From a virus (taxonomy: Duplodnaviria; Heunggongvirae; Uroviricota; Caudoviricetes): 17,636 bases of DNA. The notes under the pieces are model-generated. The model was not told the DNA's origin. It ran no database searches and saw nothing but the letters and a program-made list of their open reading frames with translations. Position 1 is the stretch's first letter. The number at the start of each line of letters is the position of its first letter. Positions 2,959 to 14,182 of this stretch are shown here, in pieces. The DNA lies in IMG/VR virus record IMGVR_UViG_2531839374_000016; one strand, written 5' to 3'. A program made the translations under genes and the position numbers.

Positions 2959-3295
2959 CGCGGGAAATGCAGTTTGTCATGCGGCTTGCCCGGGAGTTCC
3001 GGCGGGCAGACTGGCGGCGGATGCTGTCGGAAATGTCGGCCACTGAGCTTGGTGAGGGGGCGATTATTTCCGGATGCAGAGCTTCAGTGATGTGTGGATG
3101 GATGCGCAGTTTGCCTCGCTGAAGGCATTGATCGTGAGAATGGTGTCCGGCAGCAGTGATGCTGCGGTGGCTGATTTCAGCCTTTTACCGGAAGAGAACG
3201 GGATACCGGAGCGAACGGACGAAGAACTGATGCATCTTGGGGAAGGTATTTCCGGAGGTGTGCGTTATGGACCAGATAGCCAACCTGGTCATTGA
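2949..3295 (+). CDS. T: T segment of the G-T tail assembly chaperone (made by -1 frameshift from G); reading frame breaks near the G5 run at 3056-3060
   Basis: The -1 frame (relative to G) is open 2946-3119 (KVLTREMQFVMRLAREFRRADWRRMLSEMSATELGEG...), then hits TGA at 3120-3122. The T-like sequence continues in another frame from 3056 to TGA 3293-3295 (GGDYFRMQSFSDVWMDAQ...EGISGGVRYGPD...). The two pieces overlap at a GAGGGGG tract. Confidence 0.6.
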
Positions 3296-6200
3296 TTTGG
3301 GGATTGATGCGGCAGAGTTTAAAAATGAAATTCCCCGTATCAAAAACCTTCTGAATGGTGCAGCCGGTGATGCAGAACGGTCTTCTGCCCGTATGCAGCG
3401 TTTTATGGAGCGTCAGACTCAGGCGGCCCGGCAGACAATGCATGCGGCTTCTTCGGCTGCAACAGCAGCATCAGCCCATGCGCAGACGGTGGAGAAGAAT
3501 GCACGGGCTCATGAACGCATGGCCCGTGAGGTGGAACAAACCCGTCTGCGCGTGGATGCCCTGAATCAGAAAATGCGCGAGGAACAGGCGCAGGCCAGGG
3601 CACTGGCGGAGGCGCAGGATAAAGCGGCTGCCGCCTTTTATCGCCAGATTGACAGTGTGAAACAGGCCGGTGCGGGGCTTCAGGAATTACAGCGTATTCA
3701 GCAGCAGATCCGACAGGCCAGAAACAGTGGCGGGGTTGGTCAGCAGGATTATCTGGCGCTGATTTCGGAGATCACGGCGAAAACCCGTGCCCTGACGCAG
3801 GCAGAGGAACAGGCCACCCGGCAGAAAGCGGCGTTTATCCGCCAGCTTAAAGAGCAGGCAACCCGCCAGAATCTGTCGTCTTCTGAGTTGCTTCGCGCCA
3901 GGGCGGCTCAGCTGGGGGTAAGCAGTGCTGCAGAAGTGTATATCCGCAAAATGGAGCGGGCAGGAAAAGCCACACATTCGCTGGGGCTGAAAAGTGCGGC
4001 AGCCCGGCGGGAGCTGGGGGTGTTAATCAGTCAGATGGCGCGCGGCAATTTTGGTGCGCTGAGGGGATCCGGGATAACGCTGGCTAACCGTGCCGGATGG
4101 ACAGGCGCACTGATGTCGCCGAAAGGCATGATGACTGGCGGCGTTATTGGCGGACTTGTCGCGGCGGTCCTGGGTCTGGGTAAAGCCTGGCATGACGGCC
4201 GGAAGGAGGGCGAGGAATTTAACCGTCAGCTGGCGCTGACGGGACATTATGCCGGTGTCACTGTCGGGCAGTTGTGGAAACTCAGCCGGGCCATATCCGG
4301 GAATGGTATCACGCAACATGCGGCAGCCGGTGCGCTGGCACAGGTGGTGGGCAGTGGGGCATTTCATGGAAACGATATTGGTATGGTGGCGAAAGCTGCC
4401 GCACAGATGGAGCGATCGGTTGGCCAGTCGGTCAGCGATACCATAAATCAGTTTAAGCGGCTGAAGGATGATCCTGTAAATGCCGCGAAGGCGCTGGACA
4501 ATGCGCTGCATTTTTTGACTGCCACTCAGCTTGAGCAGATACGCGTCCTTGGGGAGCAGGGGCGGTCCAGTGATGCGGCCCGGATCGCCATGTCTGCGCT
4601 GGCAGAGGAAACCGGTAAACGCACATCTGATATTGATAATAATCTCAATGCGCTGGGTAGTACGCTGCAAACCTTGTCTGACTGGTGGAAGCAGTTCTGG
4701 GATGCGGCCATGAATATTGGTCGTGAAGACTCGCTGGATGCGCAGATTGATGCGTTACAGGAAAAAATTCAGCGCGCGAAAAAATATCCGTGGACAAACG
4801 CCTCCACACAGGTGGAGTACGATCAGCAGCGTCTTAACGATCTTCAGGAGAAAAAACGCCGGAAGGATTTGCAGGATGCAAAAGCGCAGGCAGAACGGAA
4901 TTACCAGGAGCAACAGAAACGCCGGAATGCTGAAAATGCCGCGCTGAACCGGATGAATGAAACGGAAGCTGCACGACATCAGCGGGAAATTGCGCGTATT
5001 AATGCCATGCAGTACGCCGACCAGGCTGTCAGGGATGCGGCGATACAGCGTGAAAATGAACGTTACGAAAAAGCCATTAAGAAAAATACACGGGCAACCC
5101 GTAATGATGAGGCCACCCGGTTATTGCTGCAGTACAGTCAGCAGCAGGCACAGGTGGAAGGGCAGATTGCTGCTGCCAGACAGTCAGCAGGCATTGCCAC
5201 TGAAAGGATGACTGAAGCGCATAAACAGCTTCTGGCCCTGCAGCAGCGCATCAGCGACCTGGACGGGAAAAAGCTGACGGCAGATGAAAAGAGTGTGCTG
5301 GCCCGTAAGAATGAGCTGATTCAGGCGCTGACGCTGCTGGATGTGAAACAGCAGGAGCTGCAGAAACAGACAGCGCTTAACGACCTGAGAAAAAAAACGG
5401 TTCAGCTGACCAGCCAGCTGGCAGACAAAGAACGTGCACTGCGTGAGCAGCACAATCTGGATATTGCCACTGCAGGTATGGGGGATAAGCAGCGGCAGCG
5501 CTACCAGGCACAGTTGCGCATCCGGCAGGAATACCGGCAACAGTTGCAACAGCTTGAGAATGACAGTCGCCAGAAAGGCACTTACGGGACGGAGGACTAC
5601 CGGAGGGCTGAGGAGGTGCTGAAGGGGAGCCTGAAGCGACAACTGAATGAAAACAAACGCTACTGGCAGGAACTGGAAGTGGCGCAGGGCGACTGGAAAA
5701 ACGGTGCCATGCGGGCGTTTCAGAATTTTACGGCGGATGCGGATAATGCGGTGGGAACGGCAGAACAGATGTTTACAGTGGCATTCAGCAGTGCCGGTAA
5801 TGCACTGGCGACATTCTGTACCACCGGTAAGCTGAATTTTAAATCCTTCACCTCTTCCCTGTTGTCAGATATGGCCAGAATTATGGCACAGATGGCCATG
5901 ATGCAGGCGGTAAAGGGCGTCGGCTCTTTATTCGGCTTCACGACTAATGCTGATGGCGGTGTTTACCAGTCTGCTGATTTGAGTCGCTACAGTGGCACGG
6001 TGGTTAACCGTCCGACGTTTTTTGCTTTTGCAAAAGGCGCGGGTGTGATGGGGGAAGCGGGACCTGAAGCCATTCTGCCACTGCGTCGCGGTGCTGATGG
6101 TAAGCTGGGGGTTGTGGCGGATACTGGTGGTTCAGGCATGGTGATGTTTGCCCCGCAGTACAACATCGGGATCAATAACGACGGCACGAACGGGCAGATA

Positions 6201-12881: not shown

Positions 12882-12892
12882 GTGGGGTGAAT

Positions 12893-14182
12893 ATGGCAGT
12901 AAAGATTTCAGGTGTACTGAAAGATGGGGCGGGTAAACCTGTCGTAAATTGTGCGATTGAACTGCGGGCCAGAAGAACCAGTCCGACCGTTGTGGCACAC
13001 GTTGTTGCCACTTGCGTGACGGACAATAACGGTGCTTATGTGATTGAGGCTGAGCCGGGGTATTACGAGGTTGCGCTTCACTGTAACGGCTGGCAGCCAA
13101 CCCGTGTCGGGGATATTGATGTGGCACCGACTGATGCACCGGGGACACTGAACGCGTTTCTGAATGCACCAAAGGATGGTGATTTACGTCCGGAGGTGAT
13201 GAAGCGCTTTGAGGAAATGGTGGCGCAGGCGCAGCAGAGTGCCGGGGCTGCAGCCGGAAACGCACAGCAGACGGCGCAGGATGTGGCGGCAGCCGCAACG
13301 GCCCGTGATGATGCACAACGTTTTGCGGAGAAAGCCCGACAGGATGCAACCGTCACAGCTGAGGACAGAAAGGCCACTGCGGAAGATGTGACAAGCACAG
13401 GAGCAAATGCAGCCGCAGCCGGACAGAGCGCACAGGATGCCGCAGGTTATGCCCGCGCAGCAGAACAGGCCAAAAATGACATTGATGCTGCGCTGACCGG
13501 CACTCTGAAAATGGCTAACCATCTGTCAGAAATCGCAGCAGCAGGCGAAAAGGCACAACAGAAGTCCCGGGATAATCTGGGGCTGAAAAGTGCGGCCACG
13601 ATGGAAGCACAGAGCGACATTTACGACCGGACAAAAGGCCGTCTGGCGATACCCGGCGCATTCGGCTTTGGGTGTGCTTTTCTGCCTGAAGATGTTATCC
13701 GTTTTGACACTAAGAGTGATTTCCTGGCCTGGGTAAGGAATGCGCTGCCAGGTGAATATTCCGTTGCTGGCCCCTACGACATCATCATACCCGACACACG
13801 GTTTGAAGGGGGGCTCAGCATCCGGTGGACTGATGCACGCCCTGAGACAACAGAACCGCGGTACAGAGCCAAATCCCTTACTTTTTACGGCATTAACGGC
13901 CCCATTTATCACACCCGCTACTGCTACTGGCCCATATCCAGACTGACTGACTGGGTGAAAATAAATATAACCACAGAAGATATTATTTACAGAATCGTGG
14001 CGAGCTCTGTCCGCAACAGATGGGGAGACCCTGACATTGGCGGGCTGATTATTGCTGCGTACCAGGGAGAAGCTGACGGTGATAAAGTCATCAGACTTGT
14101 CAGGGGGCAGTCATACAGAGGCTCACGACTGGGACCGGTGGGGATTTCAGTGCCCAGTACTCCCCTACACAGCCACCGCTGA
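12893..14182 (+). CDS. stf: side tail fibre protein (Stf-like), N-terminal and central part; reading frame ends at 14182
   Basis: Start at ATG 12893 (the ORF-track start at 12851 lies inside the lom terminator). MAVKISGVLKDGAGKPVVNCAIELRARRTSPTVV... parallels the lambda Stf N-terminus; Ala/Gln-rich coiled-coil shaft (aa ~110-250); distal ~180 aa not recognisable to me. Confidence 0.8.
   Translation: MAVKISGVLKDGAGKPVVNCAIELRARRTSPTVVAHVVATCVTDNNGAYVIEAEPGYYEVALHCNGWQPTRVGDIDVAPTDAPGTLNAFLNAPKDGDLRPEVMKRFEEMVAQAQQSAGAAAGNAQQTAQDVAAAATARDDAQRFAEKARQDATVTAEDRKATAEDVTSTGANAAAAGQSAQDAAGYARAAEQAKNDIDAALTGTLKMANHLSEIAAAGEKAQQKSRDNLGLKSAATMEAQSDIYDRTKGRLAIPGAFGFGCAFLPEDVIRFDTKSDFLAWVRNALPGEYSVAGPYDIIIPDTRFEGGLSIRWTDARPETTEPRYRAKSLTFYGINGPIYHTRYCYWPISRLTDWVKINITTEDIIYRIVASSVRNRWGDPDIGGLIIAAYQGEADGDKVIRLVRGQSYRGSRLGPVGISVPSTPLHSHR

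Follow-up and report, generated by a model that had tools for sequence, protein, structure and literature searches.

Are the frame breaks in the tail genes of this lambda-like element errors of reading in an inducible prophage that can still make tails, or do they mark a fixed remnant? A preliminary description placed three frame anomalies at G5/T5 runs and offered two explanations, homopolymer sequencing error and slippage-driven decay. It is likely that the region is a fixed, non-inducible lambda-like remnant with three ancestral lesions, and that a fourth change, T6 to T5 in the L gene of the window, is an under-call.

The locus and its relatives

The window (the whole stretch of DNA analysed, 17,636 nucleotides) matches positions 1-17636 of AMGB01000042.1, a draft contig of Shigella flexneri 1485-80 in assembly GCA_000296305.1, in sequence. 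It contains a lambda-like tail module (Z to stf) and ipaH, with IS elements at both ends. The comparison set consisted of 99%-identical intact EIEC prophages (L001, L002) and 13 other Shigella assemblies, including the Sanger-sequenced Sb227 (CP000036) and six further records under complete-genome (CP) accessions. L013 and L015 are the same strain, S. boydii 3594-74, whose reads were assembled anew and independently by Logan to give L015; this strain is of serotype 4, as is Sb227 (PMC4374849). We identified the following features:

1-501, minus strand: IS110-family transposase ORF (Pfam DEDD_Tnp_IS110), at the contig start and left edge of the remnant
777-1364, plus strand: Z, intact (Pfam Minor_tail_Z)
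1361-1762, plus strand: U, intact (Pfam Phage_tail_U)
1773-2513, plus strand: V, intact (Pfam Phage_TTP_12)
2572-2958, plus strand: G, intact (Pfam Phage_TAC_2)
2967-3295, plus strand: T pseudogene (tail assembly chaperone T), with one T lost between 3056 and 3057 (GAG-T-GGGG to GAGGGGG)
3267-6308, plus strand: H, tape measure, intact, 1013 aa; length as in EIEC, exact protein on about 450 contigs
6308-6637, plus strand: M, intact, 109 aa (Pfam Phage_min_tail)
6637-7335, plus strand: L, open 232-aa ORF with residues 38-63 out of frame
7340-8083, plus strand: K, intact, matching the annotated EIEC gene
8047-8622, plus strand: I, intact, matching the annotated EIEC gene
8683-12162, plus strand: J, intact, 1159 aa, matching the annotated EIEC gene
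12230-12829, plus strand: lom (Ail/Lom outer-membrane protein), intact, 199 aa
12893-14182, plus strand: side tail fibre gene (phage_tail_N domain), missing the final 47 codons and the stop; six out-of-frame codons of the next gene are read
14165-14636, plus strand: DUF4376 gene remnant (Pfam DUF4376); the RBS, the start codon and some 30 codons at the 5' end are gone
14816-16567, minus strand: ipaH (LRR_TTSS and NEL E3 ligase effector), intact, 583 aa
17133-17636, plus strand: IS1 transposase ORF (Pfam DDE_Tnp_IS1), at the right edge of the remnant; chromosomal genes are next in L018

Z, U, V and G are colinear with annotated EIEC prophage genes. The series Z, U, V, G, T, H, M, L, K, I, J is colinear with matching families, as in a lambda-like siphovirus tail module, and the earlier statement that H and J are intact holds in the called genes. 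Phage lambda and the E. coli phages PhiR55_1, mEp460 and cdtI share both the Pfam families and the gene order of the window (Z-U-V-G-T-H-M-L-K-I-J-lom-stf). DNA identity of the window is ~90% to lambdoid phages (G to the start of stf) and 99% to the intact EIEC prophages. At this identity across the tail module, the EIEC relatives keep both T (109 aa) and L intact, and their fibre gene (470 aa) is separate from the DUF4376 gene.

Homology between the window and the other Shigella copies begins at window position 627. Outside one 95-bp patch only about 3 SNPs separate the copies. Placement of the window as a deep branch (about 30 SNPs to other copies) was rejected, as 26 of the 29 SNPs fall in one patch of the K gene.

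Lesions common to the Shigella copies

Runs of 5 nt occur at or near each frame anomaly. These runs, and the deletion junction near the last of them, are:

3056-3060, plus strand: G5 run at the T site, a product of the T deletion and no slippage site; relatives read GAGTGGGGC
6744-6748, plus strand: T5 run at the first L site, where the other lineage members all have T6; the -1 change offsets the added G
6821-6825, plus strand: G5 run at the second L site, G4 in intact EIEC L (L001, L002) and G5 in all Shigella loci; a +1 frameshift
14103-14107, plus strand: bystander G5 run, the same in EIEC L001/L002 and in every covering Shigella locus except L012 (L005 falls short of the site)
14161-14164, plus strand: junction of a 246-bp deletion, with TCCC microhomology, shared by all Shigella loci that extend this far

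The chaperone T is normally produced as a G-T fusion. T is split in the window into two ORFs (2967-3122 and 3074-3295), and loss of one T within codon W32 would truncate T and hence the G-T chaperone. With the lost base put back (intact state GAGTGGGG), T encodes 109 aa and is 100% identical to the EIEC protein. The deletion was found in 12 of the 12 Shigella loci that cover the site, and a 73-aa T fragment is present on 478 contigs (including Sb227, ABB66240.1). Because it is common to every Shigella copy covering the site, Sanger-sequenced Sb227 included, the deletion is, judged by its distribution, real and ancestral. The lost base lay between G and GGGG and is thus not a single-base change in a pre-existing run. 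The break had been ascribed to the G5 run; that run was made by the deletion and was not its substrate.

In L, the out-of-frame stretch comprises 26 residues between 6748 and 6825, over which the ORF stays open; the displaced segment is nearly invariant among nine normal L proteins. Repaired L is identical to EIEC L at 231 of 232 positions. Both L changes (G4 to G5 and T6 to T5) alter pre-existing runs by one base, as expected of slipped-strand events. With T6 and G5, L reaches a stop after 66 aa, and this broken product is encoded on 64 contigs, vs three assemblies with the 232-aa variant. As aligned across the loci, G4 to G5 is a true run expansion, real and ancestral, that breaks L; it would be the only slippage event among the three ancestral lesions.

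The fibre protein has 429 aa in the window vs 470 aa in EIEC, and the alignment diverges at the deletion point. Its ORF is overlapped by another (14052-14636) in a different frame. At the ends of the deleted segment L001 reads CAGTACTCCC followed by ACCGG and, further on, GGCAGTCCC followed by CTACAC; the window reads CAGTACTCCCCTACAC. The DUF4376 remnant aligns with the 197-aa protein of TUM1881 and with that of EIEC, annotated as 207 aa. A two-gene architecture is natural here: the genes meet at a TAATG junction in TUM1881, and in EIEC L001 a TGA is followed by GAGGA and then by a candidate GTG start. From this alignment, stf was broken by a 246-bp microhomology deletion spanning the junction of two naturally separate genes rather than by a frameshift inside one gene; the deletion would have removed the fibre 3' end, the intergenic RBS and the DUF4376 5' end. 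Placement of the stf break at the G5 run does not stand, given that the intact EIEC relatives have this very run unchanged and that the lesion lies at 14161-14164, 55 nt downstream. G4 at 14103 in L012, which yields a 594-aa fusion ORF, was considered as a sign of an stf slip and rejected; L012 has eight private G/C-run contractions.

Laboratory lambda PaPa differs from Ur-lambda by a single-base frameshift that splits stf. PaPa resembles the window in having an inactivated side tail fibre while keeping the J-dependent tail genes. However, in PaPa one gene is split by a single base, whereas in the window the junction of two separate genes is taken out by a 246-bp deletion.

The window has 82 runs of 5 or more (one in about 244 nt), and the chance that a random zone contains one is 42% for 131 nt and 25% for 68 nt. 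Runs being this common, the coincidence of breaks with runs carries little weight; in general, a homopolymer beside a frame break is weak evidence on how the break arose. The three anomalies described earlier are real and runs do lie at or near all of them, but the runs are not the cause at two of the four sites (T and stf). A homopolymer origin for all anomalies is not supported by these comparisons, and among the ancestral lesions only L G4 to G5 appears to be a change of run length. That slipped-strand mutation at homopolymers produced all of the lesions and drove the decay is very improbable: the L expansion fits and is ancestral, but the T lesion takes a non-repeated T beside a run that exists only afterwards, and the stf lesion is a deletion between TCCC microhomologies with the nearby G5 as in intact relatives.

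Could all of the anomalies instead be homopolymer sequencing errors in an inducible, tail-competent prophage? The source is an early draft assembly and each anomaly has a 5-nt run at or near it. However, Sanger-sequenced Sb227, six other complete-genome records and further drafts share three of the four changes, two of these shared changes are not homopolymer-length changes, and complete genomes show no head, lysis or integration genes in the element. We regard this explanation as extremely unlikely. The two alternatives offered earlier, error and slippage decay, give way to a mixture in which T5 looks like error, L G4 to G5 looks like slippage and the T and stf lesions look like neither.

Programmed ribosomal frameshifting, by which T, L or a fibre-DUF4376 fusion would be expressed, has a precedent in the -1 frameshift between G and T of lambda-like phages. 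T is in the -1 frame relative to G, and a conserved CCGGAAAAG motif lies at the end of G: CCG GAA AAG precedes the G stop, is kept in L001 and L016, and differs from the canonical G GGA AAG heptamer. The anomalies, however, lie away from the G/T junction, in intact relatives T and L are each encoded in one frame and the fibre and DUF4376 proteins each have a gene of their own, and the shifted L segment displaces invariant sequence. The probability that the shifts are recoding sites is thus practically negligible.

The T run of L

T5 was found only in the window, L013/L015 and L017, and T6 in L001-L012, L016 and L019 (the k-mers GTTATTTTTCTG and GTTATTTTTTCTG would tell the run states apart). 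For each of the three T5 assemblies there is a near-identical T6 relative. The window differs from its nearest relative, L019 (T6), by 2 SNPs over 11.5 kb; L017 has 0 SNPs to L004 (T6). L013 has 0 SNPs to L006/L008 across the 9.4-kb tail core and 6-8 SNPs to L006, L008 and L011 across 19.7 kb, and its only private indels are A8 to A7 and T6 to T5. Comparison with other isolates, which had been proposed as a check, thus gave a divided result: the T deletion, L +G and stf deletion are shared and ancestral, whereas T5 is sporadic.

L017 (NGWE) was sequenced on an Ion Torrent PGM (PMC6563743). No paper stating the platform of two 2011-12 drafts (AMGB, which is 1485-80, and AFGC) was found, and among T5 carriers only NGWE is documented. 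T5 alone combines absence from independent assemblies of the same lineage with an error-prone platform, the latter only in part (one carrier is Ion Torrent). The T deletion, L +G and stf deletion are each in all of the 11-13 independent Shigella assemblies that cover them. Thus, we infer that the strain itself most likely has T6 and that T5 arose as a homopolymer under-call in its draft, the platform of the window being unverified. Since T5 restores the frame, the "intact" 232-aa L of the window is then probably an artefact, and RefSeq WP_004983956.1 ('phage minor tail protein L') probably owes its existence to an under-call that masks a real frameshift. Whether T5 is real or not, the L protein made from T5 and G5 would be scrambled over 26 residues of a nearly invariant segment.

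The pattern resembles flow-based homopolymer errors (454, Ion Torrent), as T5 is confined to two early drafts and the documented Ion Torrent assembly; one of the drafts has a second private under-call (the A8 run) and 0 SNPs to Sb227 in the 9.4-kb tail core. It differs from such errors in the unverified platform of the window and in recurrence at one run in three assemblies, which needs a context bias. The window has roughly 25 runs of 6 or more, and the same T6 run is short in three assemblies; repeated under-calling there requires a site-specific error bias, itself hypothetical here. The drafts CCH060 and CDC 796-83, believed to be from the same project as that of the window, report T6/G5 products, so whatever caused T5 in the window and L013 spared those drafts. 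T5 is the sole private indel of the window in 17 kb and restores the frame, for which the chance is roughly 1% for a random event; this coincidence counts alike against random error and random real mutation.

Alternatively, T6 to T5 may be a real slipped-strand mutation in 1485-80, with independent origins in at least three lineages, that offsets the older +G, leaving L full-length and locally scrambled. It is a clean -1 step in a T6 run, is exactly frame-restoring, is reproduced in the re-assembly L015, and has no second private indel beside it in the window. Nevertheless, the closest relative of every carrier lacks T5, and the three carriers are singletons without clonal spread (three assemblies vs 64 or more contigs). 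One carrier is the documented Ion Torrent assembly and another has the second private under-call at A8. Selection for L is implausible in an element that has lost T, the fibre gene and all head genes, and three neutral changes of a single 6-nt run, all in terminal branches, would be far above expected slippage rates. We consider a real mutation unlikely. That the T6 run is truly hypermutable, with contractions repeatedly rescuing the L frame in different Shigella lineages, is much less probable still; if true, selection for the full-length variant L would imply some residual use of tail genes in a headless remnant.

A fixed remnant with ipaH

In the complete Shigella genomes, no head or other phage genes beyond the tail module were identified. 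IS66 and chromosomal genes lie directly left of Z, and ipaH, IS1 and chromosomal genes lie to the right; these flanks are those of sister copies, as the contig of the window itself starts inside an IS. Sister copies in complete genomes thus lack the head, packaging, lysis, regulatory and integration modules of an inducible prophage. Of the tail genes that would be essential, T is truncated, L is frameshifted or has 26 residues scrambled, and the fibre has no C-terminus; loss of function of the lesioned genes is predicted from these sequences.

The shared T, L +G and stf lesions, together with the missing head genes, support a fixed remnant. Of the two outcomes that the preliminary description set against each other, the fixed remnant is therefore borne out, with three inherited lesions in all covering Shigella assemblies, and the inducible, tail-competent prophage is contradicted. 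This settles the question, with mainly housekeeping value and no new biology implied. Three independent inactivating lesions would already have been present in the common Shigella ancestor, and the IS elements would now enclose only ipaH, as cargo, and the tail genes from Z to stf/DUF4376. Unlike lambda-like phages, the window has T, L, fibre and DUF4376 genes that are predicted to be inactive, has lost the whole left arm, and has an ipaH effector downstream.

The ipaH-carrying defective prophage islands of Shigella chromosomes (e.g., S. flexneri 2a 301 and S. boydii Sb227) are IS-flanked lambdoid remnants. The window is likewise an IS-flanked lambdoid remnant with an intact ipaH, and Sb227 (CP000036) is among the Shigella genomes that share this locus. 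It is another copy of a known Shigella remnant, ordinary and already known in kind. It differs from the other copies in the K-gene patch (7429-7522), in having an IS110-family element on the left instead of the adjoining IS66, and in the T5 call.

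Gene content and reference prophages

By exact-protein look-up, the window corresponds to positions 1-17636 of AMGB01000042.1 (Shigella flexneri 1485-80). It encodes a lambda-like tail module on the plus strand.

Features in the ORF map of the window
777-1364, +, Z
1361-1762, +, U
1773-2513, +, V
2572-2958, +, G
2967-3295, +, T, split
3267-6308, +, H
6308-6637, +, M
6637-7335, +, L
7340-8083, +, K
8047-8622, +, I
8683-12162, +, J
12230-12829, +, lom
12893-14182, +, side-fibre gene
3' end at 14636, +, DUF4376 ORF
14816-16567, -, ipaH, intact
one at each window end, IS transposase ORFs

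Complete E. coli genomes whose prophage matches the module at 99% identity (e.g., FDAARGOS_943 and CFSAN029787), regarded here as enteroinvasive E. coli (EIEC), served as the reference for lesions. Their annotation gives intact T (109 aa) and L (232 aa), an intact 470-aa fibre gene and, as a separate gene, an intact DUF4376. The window shows exactly four relevant differences from them (3056/3057, 6744, 6821 and 14161-14164).

The ipaH genes of two EIEC prophages (L001 15561-17206, L002 15561-17203) are annotated as frameshifted pseudogenes beside intact tail genes, unlike the intact ipaH of the decayed Shigella remnant. Their homology to the window's ipaH ends at window 15763, and for this reason the LRR-coding part is a different allele. 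The 3' end of G (window 2941-2949) reads CCG GAA AAG TCC TGA, and T lies in the -1 frame relative to G; L001 and a further compared locus, L016, conserve this. The candidate G-T slip site would probably be G GAA AAG rather than the canonical lambda heptamer G GGA AAG. Within Z, a G run (938-943) is one G shorter in loci L008 and L013, and the adjacent C run is one C short in L012, so that Z too contains a run that is unstable or prone to error.

Lesions in T, L and the fibre region

The preliminary description placed the breaks in T, L and the side-fibre gene (stf) all at homopolymers. The anomalies exist, and 5-nt runs are present (G at 3056-3060, 6821-6825 and 14103-14107; T at 6744-6748). 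However, the link is mostly coincidental: the window has 82 runs of five or more, one per 244 nt across the tail region, and 42% of random 131-nt zones contain at least one. The change from G4 to G5 in L is a run expansion, whereas the T deletion created its run and the stf lesion is unrelated to the run nearby.

T is represented by 51-aa and 73-aa ORFs overlapping at 3074-3122. At 3056/3057, intact relatives read GAG TGG GGC and the window GAG GGG GC, the missing base being one T, the first position of a Trp codon. The deletion left the G5 run behind as its scar; no slippery run stood there before. Restoring the base gives a protein identical to EIEC T.

L is an open 232-aa ORF, with residues 38-63 reading SVMSRTKKVSRSPGRGDSISRIPFRG versus FCNEQNEKGEPVTWQGRQYQPYPIQG in normal L proteins. 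Intact relatives have T6 at 6744 and G4 at 6821, where the window has T5 and G5. Restoring both runs yields a protein 231/232 identical to EIEC L.

Between 14052 and 14182 the fibre ORF shares its sequence with the following ORF, which is in a different frame. Alignment to relatives shows that the window lacks 246 bp at 14161-14164, with TCCC microhomology at the junction (L001 reads CAGTACTCCC/ACCGG…GGCAGTCCC/CTACAC there); the G5 run at 14103-14107 does not differ between the window and intact EIEC relatives. Fibre and DUF4376 are adjacent, separate genes with a TAATG junction in an unrelated, apparently intact prophage of E. coli TUM1881. In EIEC, TGA closes the fibre gene; downstream come GAGGA and then a GTG that is a candidate start for DUF4376 (the PGAP start is earlier, overlapping the fibre gene). 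The deletion takes out the 3'-terminal 47 codons of the fibre gene with its stop, the ribosome-binding site between the genes and roughly the first 30 codons of DUF4376. Since 246 is divisible by three, the natural frames of the two genes remain out of step, and this offset is what the preliminary description had noted as the stf break; it is not a frameshift in one gene but a deletion across the junction of two.

One Shigella locus, L012, has G4 at 14103 and consequently a 594-aa fusion ORF. We rejected this as evidence of slippage because eight private G/C-run contractions elsewhere mark an error-prone assembly. In Sb227 the fibre gene is split further: the part equivalent to window 13174-13980 differs from otherwise near-identical relatives by two private single-base deletions and a string of six G->A changes.

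Thirteen further Shigella loci were compared: Sb227 (CP000036, a Sanger-era sequence), six other records under complete-genome (CP) accessions, and a number of draft assemblies. Each locus that spans a given site carries the lesion there (the lost base in T, G5 in L or the 246-bp deletion), and the 73-aa T fragment and the 66-aa broken-L product (T6/G5) are found on 478 and 64 contigs, respectively. Thus, the sequence comparison identifies all three as real and ancestral to the Shigella copies. Of the two explanations first offered, decay holds for these lesions, and sequencing error is probable for T6->T5 alone.

The T run in L

T5 was seen only in the window, S. boydii 3594-74 (L013) and S. 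flexneri 6 FC2615 (L017, assembly NGWE). A Logan re-assembly, L015, matches L013 at 100% and is therefore taken to derive from 3594-74's own reads. The three carriers lie on different backgrounds, each with a near-identical T6 relative. Over 11.5 kb, the window and its nearest relative, L019, are separated by 2 SNPs and a single indel, T5/T6. L013, compared with Sb227 and two complete genomes, has 0 SNPs to L006 (Sb227) and L008 over the 9.4-kb tail core and, over 19.7 kb, 6-8 SNPs to L006, L008 and L011; A8->A7 and T6->T5 are the sole indels private to it. L017 has 0 SNPs to L004. The window and 3594-74 sequences are 2011-12 drafts, probably from one centre and probably 454-era. NGWE was sequenced on an Ion Torrent PGM (PMC6563743).

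A genuine private slippage event is an unlikely source of T5: for real mutation it would be very unlikely that one 6-nt run was hit neutrally and independently three times, on terminal branches and with no clonal spread, and selection for L makes no sense once T, the fibre gene and every head gene have been lost. For these reasons we favour, with good though incomplete confidence, an under-call by flow chemistry. This fourth change is probably a sequencing error that hides a real frameshift. Accession WP_004983956.1 (also EJZ66921.1 and EGJ00750.1), annotated in RefSeq as an intact 'phage minor tail protein L', is probably a chimera (6637-7335) in which the +G frameshift is cancelled by the T-run under-call. 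Whether T5 is real or artefact, the window's L would not be expected to work, because the replaced 26-residue segment is nearly invariant among normal L proteins.

In H, L013 has A7 instead of A8 at 8755 (window 5390-5397), splitting the gene into 713 + 276 aa; private to this draft, it is probably another homopolymer under-call.

Remnant status and variation among copies

In complete genomes, IS66 elements lie directly left of Z, followed by chromosomal GGDEF, DUF4186, glutaminase and aldehyde dehydrogenase genes; right of ipaH, other Shigella copies have IS1 and then chromosomal genes. No head, packaging, lysis, regulatory or integrase genes surround the tail module in complete Shigella genomes. 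Homology of the window to the Shigella copies begins at 627, within what in EIEC is a head-tail joining gene. Because phage lambda needs both gpGT and gpL to assemble its tail, the element would be unable to make tails, let alone phage, whichever the state of the T run. With the non-tail phage genes absent from the complete genomes and T and L broken, the proposed fixed remnant stands and the inducible, tail-competent prophage does not. The biology is familiar and already known: an ipaH-bearing lambdoid prophage decaying in Shigella.

An IS3-family element at the 3' end of J (equivalent of window 12122-12127) is absent from the window, Sb227, L008, L011 and L013, and present in L003, L004, L005, L007, L009 and L010 (at about 18862-20123 of those loci), where J is cut to 1149 aa. 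In K, a single 95-bp patch (window 7429-7522) accounts for 26 of the 29 SNPs that separate the window from other Shigella copies. Here the window and L019 retain the EIEC version, and the divergent block of the other copies resembles a short tract acquired by gene conversion from a different lambdoid K gene.
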